Shown here one piece after another: positions 18,831 through 50,802 of a DNA stretch of 64,000 bases. Numbering within the stretch: position 1 is the first letter of the stretch; each line of letters opens with the position of its first letter. A program made the translations under genes and the position numbers. The notes under the pieces were generated by a model. The model had not been told where the DNA came from. It ran no database searches and was given only the letters and a program-made list of their open reading frames with translations. Source of the stretch: Patescibacteria group bacterium (lineage in GTDB: Bacteria; Patescibacteriota; Microgenomatia; UBA1400; PJMF01); contig JBMORP010000002.1 in the NCBI GenBank assembly GCA_049322655.1, positions 32,923-96,922 on the forward strand. The letters run 5' to 3'.

Positions 18831-18944
18831 TTAGGGACTTTTTATTTTATAAGGTCTTTAGCTGAGCAAGCTTCGGTAGTGGCTCAGGCCACTGCTGAGG
18901 GACTGCCATATTCCAAATTCTTATGTAAAGGATGGTAAAACCCC

Positions 18945-19214
18945 ATGACTGACAAAGTCAAAAAAACCCGCAAGCCCAAGAAAGAAATGCCCGCCTGGCA
19001 ACGCATCGCCAATGACGTGAGCCGCTCTGTTGACGCAAACCTTCGCGGCAAACTGGACATCGAAGATGCCCAGGAGATGTTGCTCGAAGCCCTCGAAAGC
19101 CTGCCGGAAGGAAAGGAACGTCGCGAGTTCTTGCTCGCCAACGTGCCCGAACTCGCCGACATGAAACAGCGCGCGGACAACCGCCAGGGCGAAATCAACA
19201 AACTCAAGAAGTAA
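18945..19214 (+). CDS. hypothetical basic/acidic helical protein encoded in the GC-rich island (89 aa)
   Basis: ~58% GC with GCC/CGC/CTG-rich codon usage, unlike the host. RBS 'aaaggatgg'. Lys-rich N-terminus. Confidence 0.5.
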   Translation: MTDKVKKTRKPKKEMPAWQRIANDVSRSVDANLRGKLDIEDAQEMLLEALESLPEGKERREFLLANVPELADMKQRADNRQGEINKLKK

Positions 19215-19223
19215 GTCCGGAAA

Positions 19224-19487
19224 TTGATGATTACCATCAAGTTCCTGATGACCTTCTTGGTCAAAAAAGGACACAACGTCCTCGACGCGTTCCAGAAAAG
19301 CGCGGCTGATGATGCTCCGCGCGTCATGGCTGAAGCCCGCGAAGCCATGTTCCAGGCGCAAATCTTCGAAGAAGGCGCGGCCGGGTTCGGTGAGGTCCTT
19401 GCCTCCATCGAAACCTTCACCCGCACCGCGGTTACCAACGTGGGAGTGGAAGACTTCATGTCCGCTCTCGAAGACAACGAGGACTAG
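19224..19487 (+). CDS. hypothetical acidic helical protein encoded in the GC-rich island (87 aa)
   Basis: Second ORF of the island, starting 9 nt after the first. Followed by the strong hairpin 19513-19539. Confidence 0.45.
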   Translation: MMITIKFLMTFLVKKGHNVLDAFQKSAADDAPRVMAEAREAMFQAQIFEEGAAGFGEVLASIETFTRTAVTNVGVEDFMSALEDNED

Positions 19488-19512
19488 ATCCTCACCTGTT
19501 TCCAATCAATGT

Positions 19513-19539
19513 GAAAGGGCGCCCCACAAGGGCGCCCTT
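19513..19539 (+). terminator. GC-rich terminator-like hairpin closing the island
   Basis: aaagggcgcc-ccacaa-gggcgcccttt. Confidence 0.55.
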
Positions 19540-19573
19540 TCTACGTTAAAAAGCCTTTGTATATAATACAACT

Positions 19574-19843
19574 ATGATTAAAAACCCAGAACAACAACAT
19601 AAACCAAACTACAGTAGTGGTGAGTGGTTAGACTCCTTAACTTACTTTCAAGTCGATGATCTAGTTACTTGCCCCAGTAAACATGGTGATTTAGTCTTGA
19701 AAATTACCCAGATTAGACCAGTTAGACCTGGTGATTACAAATTTGCCCTTCACACCCAATATGTTGAACTTAGTGATCAACATGGCGTAATAGAAAGTAA
19801 TATTTCTGCAGCCCTGATTCAACTAGTTAAAACTGAAAAATAG
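19574..19843 (+). CDS. hypothetical small protein (89 aa)
   Basis: Host-like AT-rich composition. Terminator hairpin agagg-gttgc-cctct plus T7 immediately downstream. Confidence 0.4.
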   Translation: MIKNPEQQHKPNYSSGEWLDSLTYFQVDDLVTCPSKHGDLVLKITQIRPVRPGDYKFALHTQYVELSDQHGVIESNISAALIQLVKTEK

Positions 19844-19932
19844 AGGGTTGCCTCTCATTTTTTTCACTTTACAATCACAAAAGAGATCAAACAGAGTTAT
19901 TGCTAGTTAAATCTGATCTCAAGAAAGAGGAT

Positions 19933-20055
19933 ATGGAAAGATTTACTCCTCCAGGTGCTAGAAAATGGGAAAGTTGGGTTCCAGAAGATACAAACGAGGA
20001 AACTCAAAATCCTGGTACTCCTCCAGAAGACTTGGATCTCCCAGAAGAAGAATAG
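19933..20055 (+). CDS. possible small acidic peptide (40 aa, MERFTPPGARKWESWVPEDTNEETQNPGTPPEDLDLPEEE)
   Basis: Strong SD 'aagaaagaggat' 6 nt upstream of the ATG. Below the length cutoff of the ORF track. Confidence 0.3.
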   Translation: MERFTPPGARKWESWVPEDTNEETQNPGTPPEDLDLPEEE

Positions 20056-20106
20056 TCTATTGCTTCCTTGCTAATCAGTTGGAAATAACCGTATAATGGA
20101 AGAATT

Positions 20107-33704: not shown

Positions 33705-34436
33705 TTATCTAATTACTACATTGGTTAAATACTGATCAAAAATCTGTTTGGCCTGTTCAACTTGTTGTTTAGTAGCAGGTTCAACTCCTTCCAGTTTATA
33801 TGGTAACCCAAGCTCTGCATATTTATACACACCCAAGGTGTGATAAGGCAAAATCTCAACTCGTTCAATAGTTTCGAAATCCTTGAAATACTGAGCCCAT
33901 TTTTCTAAATATTCTGGTTGATCTGTCCAACCAGGCACCAACACATACCGTAACCACAGTGGTTTACCAGTCTGTTCTCGGTAGGCTGCATTCTTTAAAA
34001 CATTAGTATTGGAATGACCGGTTAATTTCTGATGCCAAGTTCCATCAATATGTTTAACATCTAGCATCACTAAATCTACTAGGTTGTAAAGTTCATTGAT
34101 TTTTTGGTTGTAAATTGCCCCACAGGTATCGAGTGTAATATGAAAGCCAGCTTCTTTAACCGCGATAAAAAGTTTTATTAGTTCTTTGGCTTGAACTGTT
34201 GGCTCACCACCAGACACAGTTAAACCACCCTGCTCGCCAAAATATGGTTTTTCTTTTTCTAAAAGTTCCAGAATTTCTTTGGTAGAAACTTGTTTAGCTT
34301 GATCACTTTTAATTAACTGAGAGTCTGGATTATGACAGTAAGCACAGGCGAAAAGACAACCCTGGATAAAAACCACCAGCCTGATACCGGGACCATCATG
34401 AGTGCCAAAAGTCTCAATCGAGTGAACTGACAACAT
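33705..34436 (-). CDS. pflA: pyruvate formate-lyase activating enzyme (glycyl-radical activase)
   Basis: Radical SAM 'CLFACAYCHNPD' and 'TVSGGEP'. Confidence 0.85.
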   Translation of the reverse strand: MLSVHSIETFGTHDGPGIRLVVFIQGCLFACAYCHNPDSQLIKSDQAKQVSTKEILELLEKEKPYFGEQGGLTVSGGEPTVQAKELIKLFIAVKEAGFHITLDTCGAIYNQKINELYNLVDLVMLDVKHIDGTWHQKLTGHSNTNVLKNAAYREQTGKPLWLRYVLVPGWTDQPEYLEKWAQYFKDFETIERVEILPYHTLGVYKYAELGLPYKLEGVEPATKQQVEQAKQIFDQYLTNVVIR

Positions 34437-34452
34437 CTATTAACCCTTCACT

Positions 34453-36681
34453 TTACATTGTCTCATGGAAAGTGCGGGCAATCACTTCTTGCTGTTGAGC
34501 TTTACTCAACCTAATAAAGTTAACAGCATAACCAGAAACACGAATAGTTAATTGAGGGTGGTCTTCTGGATGTTCCATCGCATCTAGTAGGGTATCTCTA
34601 TTCAACACATTAACATTCAGGTGATGAGCATTTTTATTGAAATAACCATCCAACATACTAACCAAGTTCTGTGTTTGTTCCTCTTTAGAACTTCCTAAAG
34701 ACTTAGGCACCATTGAAAAAGTATTAGAAATTCCATCTCTGGCATCAGCATAATTAAGTTTTGCTACTGAGTTGAGAGAGGCAATTGCTCCAGAACTATC
34801 CCGACCATGCATTGGATTAGCACCTGGAGCAAAGGCTTCACCTTTTTTTCTACCATCTGGGGTAGCTCCAGTTTTCTTGCCATAAACCACATTAGAAGTA
34901 ATAGTGAGTACCGAGAGGGTCGGAGTAGCATCTCGATAAATATGGTGTTGGCTAAGTTCATGATTAAAATCATGAACTAAAGCTTGGGCCAGTTGGTCGA
35001 CTTGATCATTATCATTACCAAATTTAGGAAAGTCACCCTCAATCGTAAAACCAGTGGTTAAACCATTGTCATCACGTTCGGCTGTCACTTTGGCAAATTT
35101 AATTGCAGCTAAAGAATCAGCCGCTACACTTAAACCAGCCATCCCAAAAGCCATATTGCGTTTAATCTTGCTGTCCATAAAAGCTAACTGAGCTCGCTCA
35201 TAGTAGTACTTGTCATGCATGTAATGAATCACATTCATGGTACTGACATATTGCTCGGCAACATAACTGATGGTTTGTGCAAAACGTTTTTTGACTTCTT
35301 GATAGTTTAAAGGTCCTGCTGGTAACGGCTCAATTCCGGGTACAATCTCAATGCCAGTCAACTCATCTTTCCCTTCATTCAAAGCCAATAACAATGTTTT
35401 AGCAATATTGCAGCGAGCCCCAAAAAACTGCATTTCTTTCCCTGTTTCCATCATCGAAACACAACAAGCAATACAGTAGTCATCACAGTCACCAACTTGA
35501 CTCATCAGTTGGTCATTTTCATATTGTAGAGAAGACGTATCGATTGAAACCTGTGCAGCAAATTCTTTAAAGCCTGATGGTAATTGATCAGACCACAAAA
35601 TCGTTAAATTAGGTTCTGGAGCAGGACCTAAGTTATATAAAGTCTGTAAAAACCGAAAACTAGTTTTAGTAATTTTATGCTGACCATCTTGCCAAAGACC
35701 ACCAATCACTTCTGTCACCCAAGTAGGATCTCCAGCAAACAATTGGTTATACTCGCTCATTCTGAGATGTCTGACTAATCTAAGTTTTAGTACAAATTGA
35801 TCTACTAATTCTTGAGCTTCTTTCTCGGTCAAACTGCCATCAGTTAAGTCTTTTTCAAAATAAACATCAAAGAAATTACTAACATTACCTAAACTCATAG
35901 CAGCACCATCTTGTTCCTTAACCGCTGCTAAGTAAGCAAAATAAGTCCATTGCACCGCTTCTCTAGCATTACTTGCTGGGCGGCCAACATCAAAACCATA
36001 AGCTTGAGCCATTTCACCAATTAACTGGAGAGCTTTTATCTGTTCACTGATTTCTTCTCTTAATCTAATAAGCTCATCAGTCATTACTCCAGTAAGTTGG
36101 TTAAGATCAGTTTGTTTGGCTTCAATTAATCGATCTAGACCATACAGAGCCAAGCGACGATAGTCACCAATGATTCTGCCTCTGGCATAATTGTCTGGAA
36201 GGCCAGTAATTAGCCCAGACTTTCTTAGTTTACGCATTTCCTCTGTATAGGCATCAAACACACCATCATTATGAGTCTTTCTATATTTACTACACAGTTC
36301 AACTACTTGTTTATCAAGTTCATAGCCATTTTCTTCACAAGCTTTTTTAACTACCCGCCAGCCACCAAAAGGCTTAATGCTTCTTTTCAGCGGCTGGTCT
36401 GTCTGAAATCCAACCACTGTTTCCAAATGTTTATCAATATATCCTGGTTGATGACTAGTAATTGTAGAAATAGTTTTAGTATCAATATCCAAAACTCCAC
36501 CATTTTTTATTTCTTTAGTTAAAAGCTTTTTGGCTTTTTCCCATAATTGTTTGGTTTTCTGACTGGGGCCCACTAAAAATGAGCTGTCACCATCATAGGC
36601 AGTAATATTAGTGTAAATAAAATCACGAACATTAATTTCAGCTTGCCAACGATTCATCTTAAAGGAAGTTTTACCAGTCAT
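34453..36681 (-). CDS. pflB: pyruvate formate-lyase (glycyl radical enzyme)
   Basis: C-terminal glycyl radical motif 'RVSGYAVNF'. Active-site 'CCVS'. 742 aa. Confidence 0.9.
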
Positions 36682-36796: not shown

Positions 36797-37183
36797 CTAC
36801 CACAATTTTTGCTGAACCATAAAACAAGCCTGGCTGATGACTGTTAAACCATGTTGCTGAGCTAACTCAACTGCATCTTGAGATTCTGATCCCGGCTGCA
36901 TCCAAATTGTTTCAAGACCAAGTTCCAAACAGACTTTCACTACCTCTAGGGTTGCTTTTGGAGGGACAACTGTTATAACTAAATCTGGTTTGGGCTTGAT
37001 CTCTTTTAGAGAAACAAATAGTGGCTGACCAGCAACCACCCCACCTTTGGGGTTAACCCCAACTACATTATAATCAGCCGCTACTAAATCTTTAAAGATT
37101 TTGGCACCATATTTTTGTGGATCATGAGAAACACCCACTACCGCTATCTTAGTTTGTTTAGTCAGATTCATAGTTAAAATCAT
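36797..37183 (-). CDS. CoA-binding domain protein (YccU-like)
   Basis: 'IAVVGVSHDPQKYGAKIF', 128 aa. Confidence 0.6.
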   Translation of the reverse strand: MILTMNLTKQTKIAVVGVSHDPQKYGAKIFKDLVAADYNVVGVNPKGGVVAGQPLFVSLKEIKPKPDLVITVVPPKATLEVVKVCLELGLETIWMQPGSESQDAVELAQQHGLTVISQACFMVQQKLW

Positions 37184-37200: not shown

Positions 37201-39084
37201 ATGGAAACAATGAAAAAGCTTTTTTTCAGCTTGCTAGCTAGTTTATTGGTACCTATTTATTTATTGGTAGCTACTGAAACCAGAGCTCAACAAACAGAGA
37301 TTAATGCCTTTGAAAACAAACTAATCAGTACCTATACCGTTAATGAGCTAGGTAATACTTATGTCGAACATACCTTTTCCATCAAAAATCTGACTCCGAC
37401 TTATTACATTACTAAGCATGGCTTAAAAACCAGCTCACCCAACATTACTAATATTAGAGTCTTTGATCAACAAGGCAATAATTTTAATGCTGAGATCACT
37501 AAAGTTGAAAACCAAACTAATATTGGTATTACCTTCCCAGATAAGTTGGTCGGAGAGGGAAAAGTTAGAACTTTTACTATCAGTTATAACAACCCCGACT
37601 TGGCTCAAGTTAATGGCAATGTTTTGGAGATAGCCATTCCCAAACAAGCCGATTCCAATCAATATCAACAAGCAGAAGTAGTGCTCAACACCCCGCTCAG
37701 GTTTGGCAATGCTACTAGAGTAACTCCCGCTTCAAATTTTACTCAAAAACTAACCGATAAAGGCATCCAAATGACTTTCAGTGAGCTGAAAAATCAAGGT
37801 GTGTCAGCCCTATTTGGTATCGACCAGATTTTTGATTTAAACTTCACTTATTTCTTGGAAAACAACGATTCTCAACCAATTTTGCTCCAAACTGCATTAC
37901 CACCAGATACTTCTTTTCAAAGAATGCACTATCACTCTATTGACCCTCTCCCAACTGAAATGGAAATAGATCAAGATGGTAACTGGATTGCTACTTTCTA
38001 TATGCCTGGTAATACCGCTCAAACTGTCAAAGTTCAGGCTCAAGCCCTTTTAACTTTGAACAAAAATCCTGATATTCCAGTTTCTTATCCCCAAAGCTTT
38101 CACTTATCCAGACAACCATTTTGGGAAATTGATAATAAAAATCTGCAACAAATTGCCGAAGAAAATAAAACTCCACAAGCAATTTATAACTATGTGACTA
38201 CCACTTTAGAGTACCAAACAATTGATTCGCTAGAAGACTTTGAAAGAAAAGGTGCTGCCCAAATCATAGGGCAACCAACCACTGCTGCCTGTCAAGAATT
38301 TTCTGATTTATTTGTCACCATAGCTAGAATTAATAACATCCCCGCTAGAGTTGTTACCGGTTATGCTTATACCCAGAATAACAGCCTACGTCCCTTGAGT
38401 TTAGTTGAAGATATCTTGCATGCTTGGCCAGAATATTGGGACGAAACAAACCAAGTTTGGCAACCAACTGATCCTACCTGGGGCAATACAACTGGAGGAG
38501 TGGATTACTTTAACCAATTTGATCTGAACCACATCGTCTTAGCCATCAATGGTCAATCAAGTACTTTGCCTTATCCAGCTGGCTCATATAAAACAGAACA
38601 ACAACAGACTGAAAAAACACTTGAAGTCCTTTTTGGCAAAAACTTTCCAAGCCAAAAACCAGAGTTAACAGCTGATTTAACCAAAAGTGAGAATAACTGG
38701 TTAAAAATGCCAGGATTTTACCAACTAACTTTAGTGAATAATTCTGGAGCTGCTTGGTATAAGCTAACTTTTGATCTTAGCTCTAATAAATCTGGAGTTA
38801 GGGTGTTTGGTGATACCTCAATACCAGCAATTTTACCGTTCCAAACTATCTCTATTCCAATCTTTGTTTATAATACACAACAAGCCTTACCAGAAAAAGA
38901 CAATTTAGTGTTAAATGTCTCAATGAATGGTGGCTCGATTTTACAAAAAGACTTCACTGTTACTAATGCGCCAAACTTCATCCAAAACTTTGCCCACCCA
39001 TACATCCCATTTTTCTTGGGCGGAACAGCGATCATCCTGGCCCTCGGCACCGGGAGTGTACTCGTTTTTAGACGAAAAAAATAA
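37201..39084 (+). CDS. secreted transglutaminase-like cysteine protease domain protein with C-terminal membrane anchor
   Basis: Signal peptide. Transglutaminase core 'TAACQEFSDLFVTIARINNIPARVVTGYAY' with downstream 'HAWPEYWD'. C-terminal TM 'FFLGGTAIILALGTGSVLVFRRKK'. Confidence 0.7.
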   Translation: METMKKLFFSLLASLLVPIYLLVATETRAQQTEINAFENKLISTYTVNELGNTYVEHTFSIKNLTPTYYITKHGLKTSSPNITNIRVFDQQGNNFNAEITKVENQTNIGITFPDKLVGEGKVRTFTISYNNPDLAQVNGNVLEIAIPKQADSNQYQQAEVVLNTPLRFGNATRVTPASNFTQKLTDKGIQMTFSELKNQGVSALFGIDQIFDLNFTYFLENNDSQPILLQTALPPDTSFQRMHYHSIDPLPTEMEIDQDGNWIATFYMPGNTAQTVKVQAQALLTLNKNPDIPVSYPQSFHLSRQPFWEIDNKNLQQIAEENKTPQAIYNYVTTTLEYQTIDSLEDFERKGAAQIIGQPTTAACQEFSDLFVTIARINNIPARVVTGYAYTQNNSLRPLSLVEDILHAWPEYWDETNQVWQPTDPTWGNTTGGVDYFNQFDLNHIVLAINGQSSTLPYPAGSYKTEQQQTEKTLEVLFGKNFPSQKPELTADLTKSENNWLKMPGFYQLTLVNNSGAAWYKLTFDLSSNKSGVRVFGDTSIPAILPFQTISIPIFVYNTQQALPEKDNLVLNVSMNGGSILQKDFTVTNAPNFIQNFAHPYIPFFLGGTAIILALGTGSVLVFRRKK

Positions 39085-40324
39085 TATTCTCTATGTTGGC
39101 AAGGCAAAAAATCTAGCTAATCGTCTTACTAGTTATACACACTATGCCCAGTTGGCTCCCAGAATTAAGAGCTTAGTTAGTACTGCCAAAAAACTTACTT
39201 TTGAAGTTTTGGACAGTGAACTAGAGGCTTTACTAATCGAAGCAGAATTAATTAGAGTTCACCAACCATTTTTTAATATTAGATTAAAAGATGATAAATC
39301 ACCAATTTATTTAATTATCACCAATGATTCTTATCCAACAATTCTAAAAAAAAGAAAAAATGATTTAAATAAAATCACAATCAATGGTCAGTTGTTTGGG
39401 CCATTTCAAAGTAGTTATAAACTAAACGAAGTACTGAAAATTGCTCGCAAAATCTTCCCTTGGTGTAATCAACCACTGCAAACAATAAATAAAAAACCAA
39501 CTAAAGCTTGTTTTTACTACCACTTGGACCAATGCCCAGGGGCTTGTTTAGGCCTGATTTCTCCACAAGACTATCAAGAGAACATTACCAATCTTAAGCT
39601 CTTTTTAAAAGGAAAAAAGAAGCAAGTGATGACAAACTTAAAAAAAAGAATGACTTTCTTTGCTGAAAAGCAACAGTACGAACAAGCCCAAAAAATTAAA
39701 CTTCAACTGCAATATATTGAAGAAGTTACTCAAAAAACTTACCAACTAAAACCAGATTTGGTCTTACCAGGACTTGGAGCAACCAAAACTGAAATTGGTT
39801 TGGTTGAACTCCAAAAAATTCTCACCACTTACACTCATTGGCCCAAAAATAAAAAACTCAATCGAATTGAAGGTTATGATGTAAGTAATATTCAAGGAAA
39901 AAATGCAGCTGTTTCAATGGTAGTTACAAAAAATGGCCAACCGACCAATAGTTCATACAAAATCTTCAATATTAAGTCTTTAGATACTCCGAATGACTAC
40001 AAAATGATGCAAGAGGCTCTACTTAGAAGACAAAACCATCCTGAATGGGAGACACCTGATTTAGTGGTAGTTGATGGGGGCAAAGGCCAAGTGAGAGCGG
40101 CTTTAACAATTTGGCAATGGGACTGCCCAGTGATTGGTATTGCCAAAAACCCAGATCGCTTAGTAATTCCTTTACCAGCTGGCAGTAATGAAAAATATAA
40201 ATTAGTCAGACTAGAGGCTAATCATCCAGCTCTAAATCTAATTCAACAATTGAGAAATGAAGCTCACCGTTTTGCCAAGAAACAATGGGGCAAGAGGCAT
40301 ACCAAGGCAATGTTGAATAACTAG
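38966..40324 (+). CDS. uvrC: excinuclease ABC subunit C (UvrC)
   Basis: GIY-YIG 'PGVYSFLDEKNNILYVGKAKNLANRL'. The start is uncertain: 38927 or 38966 ATG, or a GTG at 39056. Any of these overlaps the preceding gene by 30-160 nt. Confidence 0.8.
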   Translation: MRQTSSKTLPTHTSHFSWAEQRSSWPSAPGVYSFLDEKNNILYVGKAKNLANRLTSYTHYAQLAPRIKSLVSTAKKLTFEVLDSELEALLIEAELIRVHQPFFNIRLKDDKSPIYLIITNDSYPTILKKRKNDLNKITINGQLFGPFQSSYKLNEVLKIARKIFPWCNQPLQTINKKPTKACFYYHLDQCPGACLGLISPQDYQENITNLKLFLKGKKKQVMTNLKKRMTFFAEKQQYEQAQKIKLQLQYIEEVTQKTYQLKPDLVLPGLGATKTEIGLVELQKILTTYTHWPKNKKLNRIEGYDVSNIQGKNAAVSMVVTKNGQPTNSSYKIFNIKSLDTPNDYKMMQEALLRRQNHPEWETPDLVVVDGGKGQVRAALTIWQWDCPVIGIAKNPDRLVIPLPAGSNEKYKLVRLEANHPALNLIQQLRNEAHRFAKKQWGKRHTKAMLNN

Positions 40325-40328
40325 CCTA

Positions 40329-40709
40329 ATGCTAGTAGAATTTTTCTTACAAATGCTTAGACTTTTTCTCAATACTGGAATTACTTTTTGGATTCTATCT
40401 TACTTCGTGCCAACTATCCGCTTTGCCAACTGGACCGCCTTAATCATTGCCAGCTTAGTGATGGTGTTTATCCAAAAAATAATTAAACCTATAGTTAAAT
40501 TGCTATTTTTACCAATTAATGTCGTTACTTTAGGCTTGTTTTCTATTGTCATTAATGTTGCAATGTTGTGGTTAGTAACCTATCTAGTTCCAGGCTTTGA
40601 AATTACCAATATGGTCGTGTTTGGCTTACATTTAGATCGGTTTGGTTCGATTCTTTTTGCATCTATTTTGATTGGTTTTGTTCAAGGTTTTGTAACTTTG
40701 GTTATTTAG
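40329..40709 (+). CDS. DUF360 / phage-holin-4-like small membrane protein (YvlD-like)
   Basis: 'KPIVKLLFLPINVVTLGLFSIVINVAMLWLVTYLVPGFEI' closely resembles the YvlD family core. Confidence 0.55.
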   Translation: MLVEFFLQMLRLFLNTGITFWILSYFVPTIRFANWTALIIASLVMVFIQKIIKPIVKLLFLPINVVTLGLFSIVINVAMLWLVTYLVPGFEITNMVVFGLHLDRFGSILFASILIGFVQGFVTLVI

Positions 40710-40739
40710 CTAAAAACTCAGCCTGTTATAATATTTTCC

Positions 40740-41672
40740 ATGAAAAAGATTGTTTTGTTCGTTTTATCGATTGGTTGGTGGTTATTAACCACCACTACTA
40801 CTATCCAAGCTCTAAATCTTGATCCACTTGGAGAAGTAACTGAAGCCTCTAGTCCGATCGAAGCCAGTGAGGCTGGTAAATTAGCCTCTTCTTCAGCGGA
40901 AGTCGACCAAAAAATACAAGAAAAAAAAGATCAAGATATTACTGAAACTGGTGGTAAACAAAAAAGCAAACTAGCTGCTTACTTGGATGAACATCCAATT
41001 GGACCTTTATCTTGGCATAACCCTTTGCAACACGCCATTCGGCAAGCTATTACTAATGGTTTACCAGCTAACATTATCGTCTTATTGATGCTCTTCCCAT
41101 TAATTGCTTCCATCATCGCTTTTGGTCGCCATATTGTTGGACTGAAAGGCTTTGGTGTTTATATTCCAGCGGTGTTATCAGTGGCTTTTGTTTCTACAGG
41201 AATTGTAATTGGAGTATTAATCTTCTTTGCTGTCCTAATAGCCGCAACATTAGCCAGAAAAGTAGTCAAGAGATTAAAACTACCATTATTACCAAGAACA
41301 GCCATGTTGCTGTGGGTGGTGACTTTTCTAGTTTTGATTTTACTAATCATTTCATCCTTGGTTAACATCTCGGCTTTACTTAGCATTAGTATTTTCCCAC
41401 TGTTAATTATTATGTTGTTAACTGAAAACTTTATGAGCACTCAACTCTTTAATAGTCAAAAAGAAGCTCTTAGTATTACTTTTGAAACTTTATTGGTTGC
41501 TATTTTATGTGCACTCCTAATCAATCTAGAAAGTATTCAACAATTTGTTTTAATTTATCCAGAATTAAGCTTATTAGCGGTAGCTGGTTTAAATATGTTG
41601 ATTGGAAAATATACTGGTCTAAGACTTCTGGAAAGAGTTAGATTCGAATCAATCATTGAAGAAGAGGAGTAA
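40740..41672 (+). CDS. polytopic (about 7 TM) membrane protein, partner of the ATP-grasp/DUF1704 pair
   Basis: Signal and soluble N-terminus, then at least 6-7 hydrophobic helices. Gene order matches the conserved 7TM / RimK-related ligase / QEGLA trio. Confidence 0.5.
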   Translation: MKKIVLFVLSIGWWLLTTTTTIQALNLDPLGEVTEASSPIEASEAGKLASSSAEVDQKIQEKKDQDITETGGKQKSKLAAYLDEHPIGPLSWHNPLQHAIRQAITNGLPANIIVLLMLFPLIASIIAFGRHIVGLKGFGVYIPAVLSVAFVSTGIVIGVLIFFAVLIAATLARKVVKRLKLPLLPRTAMLLWVVTFLVLILLIISSLVNISALLSISIFPLLIIMLLTENFMSTQLFNSQKEALSITFETLLVAILCALLINLESIQQFVLIYPELSLLAVAGLNMLIGKYTGLRLLERVRFESIIEEEE

Positions 41673-41674
41673 TC

Positions 41675-42955
41675 ATGGTCCAAACTAGAGATGTTCTGGG
41701 CATGAACGCCCGCAATCAACTCTTCGTTCCCCTTAACTCAAAAAAGGCTAGATCTTTTTGTATTTCTAAATATGCCACTAAACTGCTTTTACAAAGTCAT
41801 AATATTCCCACTGCTCAGGTTTATGGGATTTTGGGAACCTCTGAAGATGTCGATGAATTTAATTGGCAAGACCTCAAAAAAGATTTTGTGATTAAACCAA
41901 CTAATGGCCATGCAGGCAAAGGAGTAGTAGCCTTTAGAAGCCAGCATGCAGATGGTGAGCATTGGACTGATGCGGTTGGCACAACCTGGAGCTTACAAGA
42001 TATTAAGCTTCATTGCACCGATATTTTATCTGGTGAATACAGTACCCACGGTTCTAATCACAATATTATTGTTGAAGAAAGAGTTCCTATTCACAGCAAG
42101 CTCTTAAAATATACCTATAAGGGGACTCCAGACATTAGAGTCGTTGTCTTTAACAGCGTTCCAGTCATGGCCTTGTTGCGGCTACCCACTGAAGAATCGG
42201 GAGGAAGAGCCAATCAAAGCCAAGGAGCTTTGGGCGTTGGCGTTGATGTTGCCACTGGCATTACTACTTATGCAGCGGCTCATAAAAACCAGTTAATTAA
42301 ATACATGCCAGATACTAAAGTTAAACTAAACGGCATTAGAATTCCTTTTTGGAATGAAGTTTTACTTACAGCAGTCAGTGCAGCCAGAGCTGCCGGCCTC
42401 ACTTTCACTGGTGTTGATATGTTTATTCACCAAGAAAAAGGACCAATGGTGGTCGAACTAAACGCCTACCCAGGTCTATCTATTCAAGTAGCTAACAAAG
42501 CTGGCTTAAGAAGGAGATTGGAGCGGGTTCAAGATCTAAATGTCTTAAGTGCTGAACATGGCGTCAGAATTGCCAAAGCTTTATTTGCTGAAAACTTCGC
42601 CAGTAAAATTAAAGAAGAAGGAGAGTTCCCAATCTTAGCCACAGAAGAAACCATTGTTATTTATGGTGATAATAAACAAAAAACCGAAACAAAAGCTTTA
42701 ATTAACACTGGTAGATTTAGATCAGTAATTGCTAGTAAACTAGCTGAAGAACTAGGGCTGATTGACGTTGAAGACTTACTTTGGTTTCAACAAATTTCTG
42801 GTGAAGGTAAGAGACCGGTAGTCGAAATTAAATTTAAATTGAAAAATAAAACAATTACTACCTCAGCTGTTGTTTCTAAAAAATTAAATAAAAATAAACA
42901 AAAAATAGAGCTTGGCCGTAACGACTTGGTTGGCTTTGTTATTAGGCCTTCATAA
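41675..42955 (+). CDS. RimK-related ATP-grasp alpha-L-glutamate-ligase-like protein
   Basis: ATP-grasp elements 'FVIKPTNGHAGKGV', 'IVEERVP', 'VVELNAYPG'. The C-terminal ~100 aa form an extra domain. Confidence 0.6.
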   Translation: MVQTRDVLGMNARNQLFVPLNSKKARSFCISKYATKLLLQSHNIPTAQVYGILGTSEDVDEFNWQDLKKDFVIKPTNGHAGKGVVAFRSQHADGEHWTDAVGTTWSLQDIKLHCTDILSGEYSTHGSNHNIIVEERVPIHSKLLKYTYKGTPDIRVVVFNSVPVMALLRLPTEESGGRANQSQGALGVGVDVATGITTYAAAHKNQLIKYMPDTKVKLNGIRIPFWNEVLLTAVSAARAAGLTFTGVDMFIHQEKGPMVVELNAYPGLSIQVANKAGLRRRLERVQDLNVLSAEHGVRIAKALFAENFASKIKEEGEFPILATEETIVIYGDNKQKTETKALINTGRFRSVIASKLAEELGLIDVEDLLWFQQISGEGKRPVVEIKFKLKNKTITTSAVVSKKLNKNKQKIELGRNDLVGFVIRPS

Positions 42956-42960
42956 AAATC

Positions 42961-43920
42961 ATGGGACTCATTGCAGATTTAAAACCACTCAATTTTCTAG
43001 AAGAAAAAAACAAGTTCTTAGCTGAGCCAAATTTTAATCCTCAATTCATTTACTCACGCATTTTTTCGCCGAAAGAACTAACTACTCACGGCTTACCAAA
43101 TCATCAATATATAAACTTGGCTGAAAAAATTCTGGAAAAAACTTTCCATGAGTTTACTAACCATGAACTAACTCAATTTAAAGGACAACTTTTAAGTCAG
43201 GAAACTGTCACAAATCAAATTACTGAGTTTCTCAAAAAGCATCAAATTGAAAATAAATATAAAATTGTTTGGGCCGAAGATTTTGTCAGTCGAACGGCTA
43301 TTAATGCTGACACGATTAAATTAAGACTTCCTTGCTCTGTTTATGAAGATGATTTGGCAGGACTGATTTATCACGAACTTGGCACTCATGCTCTTAGAAG
43401 AGTCAATTATGAACAACAACCATGGTTCAAAAAAAAGAAAAAATGTGGCTTTACTGATTACTTAAAAACCGAAGAAGGATTGGCTGTTTTACATGCCTTA
43501 TATCCCAGAAAACAACCTTTAGCTTATATGGCGGCAATTAATTTTTTAGCGGTGATCAAAGCTCAAGAAGAATCATTTTTAGAAGTGTGGCAATTCATTA
43601 ATCACTATCTAGAAGATGATGAAAAATCATTTAACATCGCTTTCAAAAAGAAACGAGGTTTGGTTGATACTAGCCAACCAGGTGGCTTCACCAAGGATTA
43701 TGTTTATTTTGAGGGGTTCGTTGAAACAGTCAGGTTTTTGCTTGAAAATGACTTACCAATCAAAGAACTTTATTTTGGCAAACTAGCTTATCAGGACATC
43801 GATAAGGCTGTGACTATGAATAAAAACTTTAAGCCATTATTACCAGCTTTTTATACAATCAACCCAAATGAATACAAAAACAAAGTGATTGCTATCGCCA
43901 AAACTAATTTCTTAGTTTAA
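42961..43920 (+). CDS. DUF1704 / QEGLA-motif protein (MATCAP-like putative metallo-carboxypeptidase)
   Basis: 'EEGLAV' (QEGLA-like) and 'YHELGTHAL' (HExxxH). Confidence 0.55.
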   Translation: MGLIADLKPLNFLEEKNKFLAEPNFNPQFIYSRIFSPKELTTHGLPNHQYINLAEKILEKTFHEFTNHELTQFKGQLLSQETVTNQITEFLKKHQIENKYKIVWAEDFVSRTAINADTIKLRLPCSVYEDDLAGLIYHELGTHALRRVNYEQQPWFKKKKKCGFTDYLKTEEGLAVLHALYPRKQPLAYMAAINFLAVIKAQEESFLEVWQFINHYLEDDEKSFNIAFKKKRGLVDTSQPGGFTKDYVYFEGFVETVRFLLENDLPIKELYFGKLAYQDIDKAVTMNKNFKPLLPAFYTINPNEYKNKVIAIAKTNFLV

Positions 43921-43932
43921 CTTTCTACCCAA

Positions 43933-44667
43933 ATGATTATTCCCACCTACAAACCACTAGGCCGATCTAGTCACAGCCTGGCTCAAGAAATCGGTAAAAA
44001 ATATAGTGAAAAAGCTACCCATACTGGAACTTTAGATCCTATGGCAGAAGGAGTATTAGTTGTTTTAACGGATGAAGATCGATTTAACAAAGCTAAATTT
44101 AGTAATTGGCAAAAAACTTATTTATTTCAAATCTTGGTTGGCATTGAAACCGATACTCATGATTTGCTGGGCATTGTAAAAAATATTGACCATAAAAAAA
44201 TAAATCAACAAGTTTTGAAAAAAAATCTAAAAAATTTTATTGGTCAACAAAAACAACTAGTACCAAAGTTTTCTGCTCAAAGAATTAATGGTCTTTCTGG
44301 TTTTGATTTAGCCAAAGCAAATAAGGATTTTCCCCTACAAAAAAATGACATAGAGATTTTTTCGTTAAAAATTATCAAACAAGAAATTATTAACAACATT
44401 AAATTATTAAACTATATTCAAAAAAACATTGCTTTAGTGACTGGTGATTTCCGGCAGTTAGACATTTTAAAAACTTGGCAAGCTAGTTTGAAAAATAACC
44501 AAGTTTTTCAATTAATTACTCTTGAAGCTATTACCTCAAAACGAACTTATGTTAGAAGTTTGGTGCGAGATTTAGCTAAAAAACTAAAACTACCACTAAC
44601 AACCTATTCAATTATTAGAACTAAAAATGGCCCATTTGAGTTAAAAAACTGTAAAAATCTCTCCTAA
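43933..44667 (+). CDS. truB: tRNA pseudouridine(55) synthase TruB
   Basis: 'GTLDPMAEGVLVV' catalytic Asp motif. Confidence 0.8.
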   Translation: MIIPTYKPLGRSSHSLAQEIGKKYSEKATHTGTLDPMAEGVLVVLTDEDRFNKAKFSNWQKTYLFQILVGIETDTHDLLGIVKNIDHKKINQQVLKKNLKNFIGQQKQLVPKFSAQRINGLSGFDLAKANKDFPLQKNDIEIFSLKIIKQEIINNIKLLNYIQKNIALVTGDFRQLDILKTWQASLKNNQVFQLITLEAITSKRTYVRSLVRDLAKKLKLPLTTYSIIRTKNGPFELKNCKNLS

Positions 44668-44681
44668 GTTATAATACTAAG

Positions 44682-45779
44682 GTGAAAACTAATCATAGTA
44701 ATAAAAAAATCATCTTAGGCCTATCTGGTGGAGTAGACTCTGCAGTTAGTGCAATTTTACTTAAAGAAGCAGGTTATCAAGTAGAGACTGTCTATATAGA
44801 ATGTTGGCATGAACCTGGTTGTAGAGCTGAAGGAGACCGCAAAGATGCGCTCAAAGTAGCCTTACAGCTAAATTTACCTTTTCAAGTTCTAGATTTTAAA
44901 CAAGCTTACAAAGAAAAAGTCATGGGCTACTTTTTGAGTGAGTATCAGGCTGGTAGAACTCCCAATCCAGACGTGATGTGCAATAAAATCATTAAATTTG
45001 GCCTATTTTATGATTGGGCAACCAAACAAGGTTATGATGCCATTGCCACTGGCCATTATGCTAAAACCGACGGTAAAAACTTGCTTGTTCCAACCGATAC
45101 CACTAAAGATCAAACCTACTTCTTGTATGAAATAAAAACAGAACAGTTACCACAAATTATTTTTCCTCTGCAAGATTTAACTAAGAAAGAGGTGAGAGAA
45201 CTAGCTATTAAACACAACCTACTAGTGGCTAACAAAAAAGACTCAGTGGGTATTTGTTTTGTTGGTGATATTAATGTACCCAAGTTTCTTAAAGAGAATC
45301 TGGGAGAAAGACCAGGTAATATTGTAGATGAGCAAGGCAATGTCTTGGGCCAACATCGAGGCTTATGGTTTCATACCATCGGCCAACGCCATGGTTTTAC
45401 TTACAATAAGAAGAAATATGTTCAGCTAAATAAAAACTTAGATAAAGGTGATTTACCAGCTTTGTATGTCATTGAAAAAAAACCAAAGACTAATGAACTA
45501 GTCATTGGCCAAAAACAAGAAACCTTAAGAAATTCCTTTGAAATTACTAATTTACACTTAATTGGAGTAACTGAAACTGAACTTTTAAATAGCCAAAATT
45601 TGAGTATTAGAATCAGAAATACTGGCGAAAAAATACCTGGCTTATTAGAAAAAAAAGACGGAAATTTCAGCATAAAATTAAAACAACTAGCCAGTGGTAT
45701 AGCTAGCGGTCAATCAGCTGTTTTTTACTTGGCTACCGAAGAACAAATTATTTGTGCGGGTGGTGGAATTATCCTTTGA
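44682..45779 (+). CDS. mnmA: tRNA-specific 2-thiouridylase MnmA
   Basis: PP-loop 'GLSGGVDSAV' and 'CNKIIKFG'. Confidence 0.85.
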   Translation: MKTNHSNKKIILGLSGGVDSAVSAILLKEAGYQVETVYIECWHEPGCRAEGDRKDALKVALQLNLPFQVLDFKQAYKEKVMGYFLSEYQAGRTPNPDVMCNKIIKFGLFYDWATKQGYDAIATGHYAKTDGKNLLVPTDTTKDQTYFLYEIKTEQLPQIIFPLQDLTKKEVRELAIKHNLLVANKKDSVGICFVGDINVPKFLKENLGERPGNIVDEQGNVLGQHRGLWFHTIGQRHGFTYNKKKYVQLNKNLDKGDLPALYVIEKKPKTNELVIGQKQETLRNSFEITNLHLIGVTETELLNSQNLSIRIRNTGEKIPGLLEKKDGNFSIKLKQLASGIASGQSAVFYLATEEQIICAGGGIIL

Positions 45780-46132: not shown

Positions 46133-47667
<1,535 letters not shown>

Positions 47668-48234: not shown

Positions 48235-50802
48235 ATGAATTTAAATCGTTTTACTACTAAATCTGCTGAAGCTATTCAGGGCACCATGCAGTTAGCTGGC
48301 AAATTAAAACATCCTGCCATGCAACCTTTGCACCTTTTCTTAGTTCTAGTAGAACAACCTAATGGATTAATTCCATCTTTACTCCAAAAACTAGAACAGG
48401 ATTTGGCTGCTTTAAAATTAAAAATTAAAGATAAACTCTCAACTCTTCCTACAACTGATACAACTACTCAAGCCTATGTTTCACCAGAGCTCCAACAAGT
48501 CTTGGCTAAAGCAGAAACAGAAGCAGGCAAACTCCGAGATGAATACATTAGTACTGAACACTTATTTTTAGGTTTACTAGATAACCAAGAAATCAAACAG
48601 TTAATTGACTTAGACAAAAAAGCTGTCTTGGAAACATTGAAAAAAATTAGAGGCAACCAAAAAGTAACTGATCCAGATCCAGAAGGTAAATACCAAGCCT
48701 TAGAAAAATATACTCAAGACTTTACTGAGCTGGCCAAACAAGGAAAAATCGATCCAGTCATTGGTCGAGATGAGGAGATCCGACGTATTACCCAAATTCT
48801 TTCTAGAAGAACTAAAAACAACCCAGTGCTAGTCGGAGAACCGGGTACTGGTAAAACAGCGATTGTTGAAGGTCTAGCCAAAAAAATCGTTGACCATGAT
48901 GTACCAGATGTATTAAAAAACAAAAAAATCCTCAATCTGGATATGGGAGCGTTAATTGCTGGCGCCAAATATCGTGGTGAGTTTGAAGATCGCCTCAAAG
49001 CTGTCATTAAGGATATTGAAGCCGCTGATGGTGAAATCATTTTATTTATTGATGAACTTCATACTATTGTTGGTGCAGGCGCTCAAGAAGGCTCAACTGA
49101 TGCTGGTAACTTACTCAAACCAGCTCTTGCTCGTGGCAAACTCAGAACTATTGGGGCAACTACTTTAAAAGAATATCGAAAATACATCGAAAAAGATGCT
49201 GCTTTGGAGCGCCGTTTTCAACCAGTCATAGTGGAAGAACCTTCAGTAGATGATTCACTTTCGATTTTACGAGGTATTAAAGAAAAATATGAAACTCACC
49301 ACGGTGTCAAAATCCGTGACAACGCTTTAGTTGCTGCCGTCAAACTTTCTCATCGTTATATCGCTGATAGATTCTTACCAGATAAAGCCATTGACCTCAT
49401 GGATGAGGCTGCCTCAGCCATTAGAATCGAGATTGAAAGCAAACCAACCATCATTGATGCTTTGGAAAGAAAAATTCGCCAACTAGAAATCGAAAAAGCT
49501 GCTTTAACCAAAGAAAAAGATGATCAAAGTAAAGAGCGACTCAAAGAAATAGAAAAAGAAATTGCTGAACTAACCGAGAAACACAAGCAATTAGAACTTC
49601 ATTGGCAAGCAGAAAAAAATACTATTGATAAAATCAAAAAATCCAGCAAACAAATCGATGAACTCAAAGAACAAGCCATTCAAGCTGAGCGTAATTACGA
49701 TTTACAAAAAGTGGCAGAAATCAACTATGGCAAAATTCCAGAGTTAGAAACTGCAATAAAAACAGCTAAAGCAGAATTGAAAAAGATTCAAACTAATCAA
49801 AAAATCCTCAAAGAAGAAGTTACTCAAGAGGATATTGCCCGAGTTGTAGCCCGCTGGACCGGTATTCCAGTCGAAAAAATGCTCGCTGAAGAGGGCGATA
49901 AATTAACCAAACTCGAAGATGAAATTGCTGAGCGAGTTGTTGGTCAAAGAAAGGCCATTGTTGCCGTAGCTAATGCTATTCGTCGCAATCGAGCTGGCAT
50001 AGGTGAGGAAGGGAAACCAATCGGTTCTTTCATCTTCATGGGACCAACTGGCGTAGGTAAAACAGAGCTAGCCAAAACTTTGGCTGAAGTACTGTTTGAT
50101 GATGAAAAAATGATGATCAGAATCGATATGAGTGAATACATGGAAAAACATTCTGTGGCCAGATTAATTGGTTCACCTCCCGGTTATGTTGGCTATGAAG
50201 AGGGTGGACAATTGACTGAAGCAGTTAGACGCAGACCATACTCGGTCATTTTATTTGATGAAATAGAAAAAGCCCACCATGATGTTTTTAATACCTTGCT
50301 TCAAGTTTTAGATGATGGCAGATTAACCGATAGTAAAGGCAGAACAGTTGATTTTAAAAACACCGTGATTATTATGACCTCAAATCTGGGCAGTGAACTA
50401 ATTGCCGACTTTAAAGACGAGCCAATTAAACAAGAACAAGAAGTTCATAAATTACTTAAACAACAATTCAGACCAGAATTCTTGAATCGAATTGATGATA
50501 TTATTATTTTCCAACCACTAGCTGAAAAAGAAATCACCAACATTGTTGATCTTCAAGTTTCAGAATTGAAAAAAAGGCTTAAAGAAAATAAAAATATTGA
50601 GCTCATTGTTTCAGCTAAAGCGATTAAATATTTTGCAAGTGCTGGTTATGACTCAATCTTTGGTGCTAGACCACTGAAAAGACTAATTCAAAAAGAGCTC
50701 TTAGATCCGCTCTCTTTAGAAATTATTCAGGGACAAATTAAAGAAGGTGACAAAATAAAAGCTGAGTTTGATGGTCGAAAAATTACTTTTAAATCAAGCT
50801 AA
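48235..50802 (+). CDS. clpB: ATP-dependent chaperone ClpB
   Basis: Two AAA+ modules ('GEPGTGKTA', 'GPTGVGKTE') separated by a long coiled-coil middle domain. 855 aa. Confidence 0.9.

Follow-up and report, generated by a model that had tools for sequence, protein, structure and literature searches.

The rloABC genes of Pseudomonas aeruginosa, described in 2025, form an envelope-stress system with genetic phenotypes (Lormand et al., mBio 2025, PMC12239564); it bears on biofilm formation, on susceptibility to antibiotics and on tolerance of osmotic, including hypo-osmotic, conditions. The 7TM membrane protein of this system, RloB, carries an inactive transglutaminase (TG) domain, and its retropepsin, RloA, is secreted and active; RloB is 96% proteobacterial, and poly-Glu, made by RimK, is cleaved by both RloA and RimB (PMC12239564). 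In the RimK-RimB system of S6 poly-glutamylation, Glu is added to a C-terminal -EE and then cut back, and the ATP-grasp ligase is bound by its partner, a cytoplasmic PF05618 retropepsin. In the tubulin cycle, TTL/TTLL ligases are opposed by MATCAP-family enzymes (MATCAP1/TMCP1 and TMCP2; PDB 7z5g, 7z6s), which remove the C-terminal Tyr and then Glu (deglutamylation), with described roles for the HExxxH and EEG motifs (PMC10499314). The same DUF1704/MATCAP family, with HExxxH and (Q/E)EGLA, includes the TIGR02421 'flavohemoglobin expression-modulating QEGLA motif protein' of Proteobacteria.

The window analysed here, a 64,000-nucleotide stretch of DNA from an uncultured Patescibacteria MAG, contains a cassette that, judged by its sequence, is a previously undescribed variant of rloABC, with an RloB-like protein lacking the TG domain and with RloC- and RloA-like parts fused. 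The cassette and its flanking features are as follows.

37201..39084, + strand: extracytoplasmic transglutaminase-like protein (Transglut_core PF01841, E 1e-16)
40329..40709, + strand: DUF360/Phage_holin_4_2 small 4-TM protein (PF04020, E 3.7e-22)
40740..41672, + strand: RloB-type 7TM membrane protein without transglutaminase domain (7TM_transglut PF14402, E 1.4e-29)
41604..41669, + strand: predicted cytoplasmic C-terminal tail of the 7TM protein, GKYTGLRLLERVRFESIIEEEE, a conserved helix followed by oligo-Glu
41675..42574, + strand: RloC-type ATP-grasp amidoligase domain, residues 1-300, cytoplasmic (ATPgrasp_ST, E 2e-59)
42620..42955, + strand: retropepsin-like (RimB/RloA, PF05618) domain fused to the ligase, Asp replaced by Asn, probable pseudo-protease
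42961..43920, + strand: MATCAP/DUF1704-family metallocarboxypeptidase, cytoplasmic (PF08014, E 3.7e-29)

The open reading frames were confirmed at the coordinates given by the initial annotation, and profile matches upheld its assignments to the 7TM_transglut, ATPgrasp_ST/TIGR02291 and MATCAP/QEGLA families. Its view that the trio has no assigned function is outdated, because the 7TM protein belongs to the RloB family and the ATP-grasp protein to the RloC family, both from the rlo operon with its genetic phenotypes (PMC12239564). Nor is 7TM/ATP-grasp/DUF1704 the canonical arrangement: the proteobacterial trio, exemplified by Legionella, instead consists of a retropepsin, an inactive-TG-7TM protein and an ATP-grasp ligase. 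In the two proteobacterial replicons inspected, no QEGLA gene was found beside an ATP-grasp or 7TM gene; the TIGR02421 genes there, unlike that of the cassette, are stand-alone and longer (430-456 aa).

The cassette further differs from rloABC in its additional MATCAP-family carboxypeptidase gene, the oligo-Glu end of the 7TM protein and the Patescibacteria host. Where RloB has its inactive TG domain, the cassette instead has an upstream gene for a distinct TG-like protein that is apparently active, and in place of a secreted active retropepsin there is a cytoplasmic, ligase-fused domain with Asn for the catalytic Asp. The pairing of an ATP-grasp ligase with a cytoplasmic PF05618 domain resembles RimK-RimB, as would the addition and removal of Glu at an acidic C-terminus; unlike in that system, the ligase is no RimK equivalog and appears membrane-associated via its obligate 7TM partner, and the module combines an inactivated protease domain with a metallocarboxypeptidase. 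With the tubulin cycle the cassette shares the combination of an ATP-grasp ligase and a MATCAP-family peptidase, the same metal motifs and an acidic, Glu-rich C-terminal tail as candidate acceptor, but the ligase is of the RloC rather than the TTL type, there is no tubulin, and the candidate acceptor is the tail of a membrane protein.

Our preferred reading, held with middling confidence, is that the cassette represents a Patescibacteria (CPR) variant of the Rlo/RimK-RimB type, a membrane-tethered module that would add amino acids, most likely Glu, to a C-terminus and remove them; we infer its chemistry, acceptor and physiology.

The ligase and the two hydrolase modules

The ligase gene begins 2 nt past the 7TM gene and spans 41675-42955, including both the ATP-grasp and the retropepsin-like domains. 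The ATP-grasp domain matches ATPgrasp_ST (see above) and scores 240 bits with TIGR02291, short of the 314 set for equivalogs; its identity to the Legionella RloC is 36.5%. Residues D248, E261 and N263, which correspond to Mg/ATP ligands, are invariant across 96 diverse homologs and fall in the segment aligned to Pseudomonas RimK 227-268. RimK proper was rejected as the identity of the ligase, with only 19-51 bits against cutoffs of 143-331 (51 bits and cutoff 143 for TIGR00768; 19 bits and cutoff 331 for NF007764). The earlier designation 'RimK-related' is correct as to the ATP-grasp family, but the ligase is not RimK proper, and the initial annotation overlooked the fused retropepsin-like domain. 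The statement that such ligases add amino acids to protein C-termini is, for the TIGR02291/RloC type, an analogy only, given that this ligase lies outside RimK proper.

The Pfam name of the ligase family, 'sugar-transfer associated', together with some relatives fused to or located beside YdjC, makes a glycan or cell-wall acceptor possible. Under this alternative, which we consider quite improbable, the ligase would add an amino acid, at the membrane, to a carboxyl group of a lipid-linked glycan, a peptidoglycan precursor or another envelope polymer, and the peptidases would edit the peptide part thus formed. [quoted passage not shown] However, in profile searches and called-gene tables covering the window and 85 loci, genes for a glycosyltransferase, a Mur ligase or a flippase were absent from the cassette and its flanks, and the characterised relatives of both hydrolases all act on peptide chains (poly-Glu, tubulin tails).

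In the retropepsin-like domain, the catalytic Asp is replaced by Asn (N344-T-G-R, 42704-42715), suggesting a probable pseudo-protease; neither the signal peptide nor the D-T/S-G motif of a secreted, active RloA-type retropepsin was found in the fused domain. Of 38 loci with a degenerate retropepsin site, 31 have a MATCAP neighbour, as against 2 of 38 with canonical DTGA (Fisher 5e-12, uncorrected for phylogeny), a clade-level correlation confounded by shared ancestry. Among MATCAP-fused proteins, D[TS]G is kept in 4/36, whereas HExxxH with [EQ]EG is kept in 41/42. In a rough NJ tree, the adjacent-MATCAP clade and the fusion clade are separate, with DTGA in the basal members, so that degeneration of the retropepsin site alongside MATCAP appears, from the sequences, to have taken place in at least two independent events.

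The MATCAP-type protein matches, in addition to PF08014, TIGR02421 (QEGLA, E 1.4e-30) and human MATCAP1 (PDB 7z5g; E 1.1e-37 over 279 residues). Its HELGTH (43372-43389) and EEGLA (43471-43485) motifs align to HEIGTH and EEGLA of human MATCAP1. H138, E139, H143, E171 and E172 are invariant in 121 homologs, and E171-E172-G173 align to the human motif; the metal-binding residues, whose loss would have contradicted the assignment to this family, are therefore intact. No TM segment was found in this protein, and an identical protein in NCBI is named 'tyrosine/phenylalanine carboxypeptidase domain-containing protein'. Searches with TIGR02291 and TIGR02421, proposed earlier as a check, recovered both families below the equivalog level; for TIGR02421 the score is 107 bits against a cutoff of 339, and the motif is EEGLA, not QEGLA.

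Gene fusions and distribution

The 7TM and ligase genes are adjacent in 85/85 loci examined, almost all from Patescibacteria. In other lineages, the four modules (7TM, ligase, retropepsin and MATCAP) are found joined to one another. Ligase-retropepsin-MATCAP triple fusions account for about 40 of the 150 best cluster representatives; 7TM-ligase fusions are represented by P0463, P0500 and an unannotated ORF of a Halobacterium plasmid; and a further type joins the ligase and retropepsin to a second ATP-grasp domain. These 'Rosetta stone' fusions in CPR (7TM-ligase, ligase-retropepsin and ligase-retropepsin-MATCAP) tie the four modules into one machine, and the many ligase-retropepsin-MATCAP and 7TM-ligase fusions back the earlier proposal that the ligase and the MATCAP-type peptidase cooperate. 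They further indicate that an endo-acting poly-Glu protease is replaceable by a MATCAP-type exopeptidase, and they provide the otherwise orphan bacterial MATCAP/DUF1704 family with a defined partner.

The ligase pattern had at least 575 matching stretches in a collection of species-representative genomes, for the most part a single one in each species genome. This suggests a wide occurrence, among the minimal Patescibacteria genomes, of the reversible ligation of C-terminal amino acids that is known from tubulin and S6.

The 7TM protein and its acidic tail

The match of the 7TM protein to the NCBIfam RloB model NF052267 (E 6e-19; 68 bits, cutoff 900) is confined to the C-terminal TM half of the model (315-507 of 508); the protein also matches the TM module of Legionella RloB (HMM E 2.8e-30). 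No transglutaminase domain was detected in it, with no Pfam TG match and positions 1-314 of NF052267 unmatched; searches for a structural match to the 7TM fold yielded none that was informative. The predicted topology comprises a signal/anchor at residues 4-22, about 87 extracellular amino acids and seven TM helices at 110-288, and the conserved C-terminal helix and tail are predicted to be cytoplasmic from hydropathy and the positive-inside rule. The GxRLLExxRF helix is conserved family-wide and is followed by the terminal EEEE at 41658-41669.

An EE end is unique to the 7TM protein within the window's set of 52 ORFs of 100 aa or more. Of its homologs, 88/120 end in E, often as (Q)EEE(E), following linkers that vary in length and sequence. 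Because the 7TM protein of the window's clade usually has a cytoplasmic oligo-Glu end (…IIEEEE), this tail is to be preferred over S6 and the peptide at 19933 as a candidate substrate or docking site. An acidic tail is present in 23/33 loci with a MATCAP neighbour versus 6/43 without, a correlation that is likewise confounded by shared ancestry, and extra ATP-grasp genes occur within the clade in 5/8 loci with a non-oligo-Glu tail versus 1/23 with an acidic one. The oligo-Glu end is not universal: about a quarter of the homologs end in …EKKS, …DKK or …LLER, and the tails of Legionella RloB and of all three triple-fusion loci inspected are basic. In 7TM-ligase fusions, the C-terminus of the 7TM part is not free, which counts against the tail as acceptor.

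Under the preferred reading, the ligase would dock on the cytoplasmic GxRLLExxRF helix and lengthen a C-terminus, which in this clade may be the encoded -EEEE end of the 7TM protein itself; alternatively, the tail might serve as a docking site for the dead protease domain. The MATCAP-type enzyme would act as the opposing exopeptidase, replacing the retropepsin endopeptidase in the window's clade, and the retropepsin domain may persist as a binding or dimerisation scaffold for an acidic peptide. Glu is taken as the likeliest added residue in view of poly-Glu cleavage by RloA and RimB, poly-Glu synthesis by RimK, the removal of Tyr and Glu by MATCAP-family enzymes, and sister loci that encode 2-3 RimK-type ligases (PF08443, E 1e-22 to 1e-33) and, in one case, a Peptidase_C26/GATase. 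If the rlo mutants of Pseudomonas are a guide, the module probably serves envelope or osmotic homeostasis. Against this scheme, the opposing protease of Pseudomonas is periplasmic, which points to an exported product there, whereas both hydrolase modules here are cytoplasmic. The C-terminal …RFESIIEEEE offers a concrete, synthesisable acceptor or docking peptide candidate, and three small soluble parts would suffice for a direct in vitro test of the Rlo mechanism.

A more specific version, which we regard as unlikely, would make the cassette a prokaryotic equivalent, complete in itself, of the tubulin tyrosination/glutamylation cycle: the ligase would extend the -EEEE end of the 7TM protein and the MATCAP-type enzyme would trim it. 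The former poly-Glu endoprotease (Asp to Asn, Ala to Arg) would then be a reader or clamp for the acidic tail, the length or identity of which would set the state of the membrane protein, and bacterial ligase-MATCAP fusions might represent the ancestral context from which the eukaryotic MATCAP enzymes were recruited.

Neighbouring genes and the possibility of export

From uvrC onward, the genes are separated by 4 nt (uvrC-DUF360), 30 nt (DUF360-7TM), 2 nt (7TM-ligase), 5 nt (ligase-MATCAP), 12 nt (MATCAP-truB) and 14 nt (truB-mnmA), so that the gaps of 3-15 nt reported initially were nearly right, the exception being the 30 nt; the TG and uvrC ORFs overlap by 158 nt. The order TG-uvrC-DUF360-7TM-ligase-MATCAP is repeated in most of about 31 MATCAP-bearing species genomes and is not a product of chance.

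We consider it very improbable that the ligase modifies S6, another soluble protein or the 40-aa acidic peptide at 19933-20055 in a RimK-like manner with the 7TM protein as a regulator, or that the cassette acts jointly with uvrC, truB and mnmA. The tight spacing, with no internal promoter or terminator signal above chance from uvrC to mnmA, and a weak resemblance of the C-terminal portion of the ATP-grasp domain to RimK are compatible with these options, but the RimK scores fall far below the cutoffs and the ligase is always paired with, and sometimes fused to, the 7TM protein. S6, the tail of which had been proposed as a substrate, is not encoded nearby, and the other proposed substrate, this 40-aa peptide, is encoded 20 kb from the cassette and occurred in near-identical assemblies only. 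The envisaged partnership with uvrC, truB and mnmA is not borne out: extra ATP-grasp genes stand in place of truB in relatives, and uvrC, DUF360, TG, truB and mnmA neighbours are lacking in more distant relatives (class B loci). By these comparisons, the three genes are syntenic neighbours or bystanders, with gene order conserved in compact genomes. In most loci of class A, the MATCAP-bearing clade, the DUF360 gene immediately precedes the 7TM gene (about 30 loci); class B loci lack it, and its membership in the system is uncertain.

The TG-like gene is found together with MATCAP and DUF360 solely in class A loci, and the secreted transglutaminase-like protein noted earlier near the cassette is syntenic in its clade. 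The protein has a signal peptide and a C-terminal TM anchor (TM segments 7-25 and 604-622), and its Cys364-His407-Asp424 triad is intact and kept in 28/29 orthologs. Comparison with the inactive TG domain of RloB detected no sequence similarity. A functional tie to the cassette is possible and would fit a further alternative that we view as somewhat unlikely: the cytoplasmic product of the ligase or ligases would be a free peptide, either poly-alpha-glutamate-like or short and acidic, which the 7TM protein would translocate to the surface for attachment or processing by the anchored TG-like enzyme. The MATCAP-type peptidase would limit chain length or recycle the product inside, and the EEEE tail would be incidental or regulatory. 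Pseudomonas secretes its opposing RloA proteases, and the rloA1-3 defect is suppressed when rloB or rloC is lost, which implies a harmful product outside the cytoplasm. Export is also consistent with the periplasmic TG-like domain of RloB, the synteny of the intact, anchored TG-like protein in 29 genomes, and the fusion of the 7TM module, in other lineages, to PKD and further extracellular domains. Finally, multi-ligase loci suggest polymer or peptide synthesis.

The cassette and its genomic neighborhood

The ORF positions of the initial annotation were confirmed, and Pfam and NCBIfam searches bore out its family calls; what it says on the canonical trio, the functional status, the operon partners and the possible substrates has to be corrected.

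Features of the cassette region (protein families by Pfam and NCBIfam)
37201-39084: secreted Transglut_core protein (TG)
38927-40324: UvrC
40329-40709: DUF360/Phage_holin_4_2, small membrane protein (DUF360)
40740-41672: 7TM_transglut (7TM protein)
41675-42955: ATPgrasp_ST/TIGR02291 (ligase)
42961-43920: MATCAP/QEGLA (peptidase)
43933-44667: TruB
44682-45779: MnmA
46134-47667: complete 16S rRNA gene, standing alone, with mnmA upstream and clpB (48235-50802) downstream

From uvrC to mnmA, neighboring genes lie 4, 30, 2, 5, 12 and 14 nt apart, and their co-transcription is plausible; the promoter scan yielded nothing above shuffled expectation, and the terminator scan found no convincing intergenic terminator on the plus strand. 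No 23S or 5S genes adjoin the 16S rRNA gene; small genomes commonly have such an unlinked rRNA operon. The TG and uvrC ORFs overlap by 158 nt (38927-39084) in different frames, the 3' end of the TG gene coding for the C-terminal transmembrane (TM) anchor and the GIY-YIG strand 'GVYSF' lying inside the overlap. Comparable TG/uvrC overlaps of 59-137 nt are called in two relatives (comparison loci L001 and L003). Just upstream of the cassette region, on the minus strand (33705-36681), reading of the sequences suggests a pyruvate formate-lyase-like glycyl-radical enzyme (742 aa) with its activating enzyme (243 aa), adjoined by a small CoA-binding-like ORF (36797-37183).

TG carries a signal peptide and, at its C-terminus, an anchor, and its Cys364-His407-Asp424 triad is retained in 28 of 29 orthologs. 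These features point to a probably active extracytoplasmic enzyme, unlike the inactive TG domain of the membrane protein RloB, to which it shows no detectable similarity. Such an enzyme could process, at the cell surface, a free acidic peptide exported from the cell, an alternative role for the system that we consider somewhat unlikely. TG and DUF360 are confined to one of two locus groups, class A, which includes the window. Their functional link to the cassette is possible and, because uvrC sits between them, inseparable from synteny. The genes uvrC, truB and mnmA had been proposed as operon partners; in several relatives, ATP-grasp genes occupy the place of truB, mnmA often follows, and the other group, class B, has none of these neighbors. 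The three genes are treated as bystanders.

Relationship to the Rlo system

Every family in the cassette is already known and annotated, and the earlier statement that it has no assigned function is superseded by the naming of the Rlo system in 2025; the current NCBIfam name of the 7TM family is 'osmotic stress tolerance membrane protein RloB'. In Pseudomonas, RloA is a secreted retropepsin that cuts stretches of 8 or more Glu, RloB is a fusion of an inactive transglutaminase with 7 TM helices, and RloC is a cytoplasmic ATP-grasp protein with 24% identity to RimK. RimK adds a Glu polymer to S6 at its -EE end, and RimB and RloA cleave poly-Glu. The hypo-osmotic lethality of a triple rloA mutant is suppressed by deletion of rloB or rloC, and the distribution of RloB was given as 96% proteobacterial (Lormand et al. 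2025, PMC12239564).

The canonical trio, as found on a Legionella replicon, consists of a 152-aa retropepsin (AKLDTGA), a 508-aa inactive TG-7TM protein and a 314-aa ligase. The ligase domain of the window is 36.5% identical to the Legionella ligase, and the Patescibacteria 7TM profile aligns over the whole length of the Legionella TM module (E 2.8e-30), the C-terminal G-x-R-L-L-E-x-x-R-F helix included. Thus, all three Rlo modules are present in the window in a different architecture: the 7TM protein lacks the TG domain; an inactivated protease, located in the cytoplasm, forms part of the ligase polypeptide; and a MATCAP-type peptidase is added. The initial annotation was mistaken in counting the QEGLA gene into the canonical trio, given that in the two proteobacterial replicons inspected, no QEGLA gene lies beside an ATP-grasp or 7TM gene. 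In the rlo-like trio of Legionella adelaidensis plasmid 5 (comparison locus L094, 2981-3439), the 152-aa retropepsin (AKLDTGA), in which no obvious signal peptide was seen, is annotated as 'RimK/LysX family protein', a name that belongs to the ligase, not to the protease.

The retropepsin domain had been omitted from the initial account of the ligase. This protein has 426 aa, and its ATP-grasp domain stops at about residue 295; conservation in the final ~110 residues equals that of the enzyme part (120 homologs with 62-99% identity, all of 417-432 aa). Direct searches with this C-terminal domain gave only noise-level Pfam matches to gag aspartyl proteases (E 0.03-0.05), spurious homeobox matches in a PDB profile search, and E 0.07 against Legionella RloA in hhalign, so that the assignment rests on structure and intermediate homologs rather than on direct sequence search. 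More distant full-length homologs of the ligase match PF05618 directly (E 1e-8 to 3e-9), and in an alignment with them, N344-T-G-R of the window falls where the canonical AK[IV]DTGA motif has its catalytic D-T-G-A. Among close homologs, the catalytic Asp position is occupied by Asn in 110 of 121 and by Asp in 4 of 121. The same Asp to Asn substitution, D48N, served as the catalytically dead RloA control (PMC12239564). The C-terminal domain of the ligase is probably an inactivated retropepsin.

The 319-aa peptidase aligns with human MATCAP1 (PDB 7z5g; E 1.1e-37), with HELGTH and EEGLA falling on the human metal motifs. The metal-binding residues recognized in the initial annotation are indeed present and do not vary across 121 homologs, and the protein already carries the NCBI label 'tyrosine/phenylalanine carboxypeptidase domain-containing protein'. 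MATCAP/TMCP enzymes trim acidic tubulin tails from the C-terminus, taking off Tyr first and then Glu, and also deglutamylate (PMC10499314). In L. adelaidensis plasmid 9 (comparison locus L093, 5494-7655), a stand-alone QEGLA/MATCAP-family gene lies directly upstream of murI (glutamate racemase), a possible hint that peptidases of this family are linked to glutamate or cell-wall metabolism.

Full-text literature searches found no description of a widespread Patescibacteria form of Rlo, of a ligase-retropepsin fusion with an inactivated site, of recurrent recruitment of a MATCAP-family enzyme, adjacent or fused, or of the oligo-Glu end of the membrane partner.

Distribution, fusions and locus classes

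Patescibacteria MAGs are the source of identical and near-identical cassette proteins. Among 1.84 billion cluster representatives, a search (E <= 1e-3) returned 1688 relatives. The best 150 of these include ~40 proteins of 747-817 aa combining ATP-grasp, retropepsin and MATCAP domains, several 7TM+ATP-grasp fusions, some proteins with a second ATP-grasp or a YdjC domain, many two-domain ligase-retropepsin proteins, and RloC-like forms of 300-330 aa. A 14-sequence domain alignment, used to scan species-representative genomes, matched at least 575 stretches; the best 80, together with loci collected earlier, gave 85 loci, almost all from Patescibacteria. The 7TM gene lies directly upstream of the ligase in all 85, an obligatory adjacency.

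These loci fall into two classes. Class A, the clade of the window (~31 MATCAP-bearing loci), has a degenerate retropepsin site (NTGR, NTSR, DTKR) and the MATCAP gene directly downstream, with TG-uvrC-DUF360 upstream in most MATCAP-bearing loci. Class B retains the canonical AK[IV]DTGA, and its flanks contain no MATCAP, TG or DUF360 gene; its ligase is often followed by 2-3 RimK-type ligases and once by a Peptidase_C26/GATase. A MATCAP neighbor was found in 31 of 38 degenerate-site loci versus 2 of 38 canonical ones (Fisher 5e-12, a value that ignores shared ancestry). Independently of this, MATCAP-fused proteins retain D[TS]G in only 4 of 36 cases, and HExxxH plus [EQ]EG in 41 of 42. In a rough NJ tree, class A forms a single clade nested among class B, and the triple fusions group separately, with DTGA still present in their basal members; retropepsin decay in the presence of MATCAP therefore arose at least twice. 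Triple-fusion loci start with the 7TM gene, sometimes with PKD or other extracellular domains, and can contain up to four more ATP-grasp genes and a second MATCAP.

Two comparison loci are intermediate between class A and class B: in L009 (9286-9717) and L027 (9281-9742), an extra stand-alone PF05618 retropepsin gene directly follows the ligase-retropepsin fusion, and there is no MATCAP gene. On a Halobacterium sp. DL1 plasmid (CP007061.1, ~106.1-107.9 kb; comparison locus L095, 4152-5918), a 589-aa ORF fusing 7TM_transglut with an RloC-type ATP-grasp is unannotated; the deposited record has no feature from the flanking transposase to the next gene. Many of the comparison loci L007-L085 have typical Patescibacteria gene content and proteins close to those of Pacebacteria/Woesebacteria, and bear titles such as 'uncultured Pseudomonadales bacterium' or 'uncultured Gammaproteobacteria bacterium' (from binchicken co-assemblies). 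The titles Woesearchaeota and Limisphaerales occur once each. All these taxonomic labels look unreliable.

The 7TM tail and a proposed mechanism

By hydropathy and the positive-inside rule, the 7TM protein is predicted to have a signal/anchor, then ~87 residues outside the cytoplasm, then seven TM helices, and a C-terminus on the cytoplasmic side, GKYTGLRLLERVRFESIIEEEE. The 7TM-ligase fusions are in keeping with this location of the C-terminus. The 7TM protein is the only one of the 52 window ORFs of at least 100 aa to end in EE. Terminal Glu is found in 88 of 120 homologs, many of which finish in (Q)EEE(E) even after a different linker 20-30 residues longer, as would be expected under selection for a free oligo-Glu end. 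An acidic tail occurs in 23 of 33 loci with a MATCAP neighbor versus 6 of 43 without, and the class A subclade lacking MATCAP has basic tails; extra ATP-grasp genes in class A accompany 5 of 8 non-acidic tails versus 1 of 23 acidic ones. The tail is not universal in MATCAP-linked systems, given that the 7TM ends of triple-fusion loci, like that of Legionella RloB, are basic, so that the tail as substrate is a clade-specific hypothesis only.

We propose that the ligase would dock on the 7TM protein's cytoplasmic helix and extend a C-terminus, probably with Glu, and that the MATCAP-type enzyme would take off the residues so added. The Asn-bearing retropepsin domain may persist as a scaffold, either binding acidic peptides or dimerizing. 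The cycle analogous to tubulin tail editing, envisaged in the initial annotation, is supported by the fusions; overall, we regard the add-and-remove reading as evenly balanced between right and wrong. In the class A clade, the acceptor or docking element could be the 7TM protein's own -EEEE end, with GLRLLERVRFESIIEEEE as the candidate acceptor peptide; that this tail is itself the ligase substrate we consider unlikely. An alternative in which the amino acid is ligated to an envelope glycan or peptidoglycan precursor appears quite improbable; the Pfam family label of the ligase, the YdjC and Ddl-like neighbors and the Pseudomonas cell-wall phenotypes speak for it.

RimK-like modification of S6 or of a distant 40-aa acidic peptide (19933-20055), the substrates first put forward, is highly improbable. 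No S6 gene was identifiable near the cassette, and the peptide, called as a gene in near-identical assemblies only and unlinked to the cassette, was rejected. One other assembly has the peptide, which ends in PEEE, among its called genes, and its annotation shows no Pfam match for the short genes of the region 18884-20100. This region has a GC content of 0.42, versus ~0.36 elsewhere in the window, and combines several short plus-strand ORFs (89, 87, 89 and 40-51 aa) with long, overlapping antisense ORFs.
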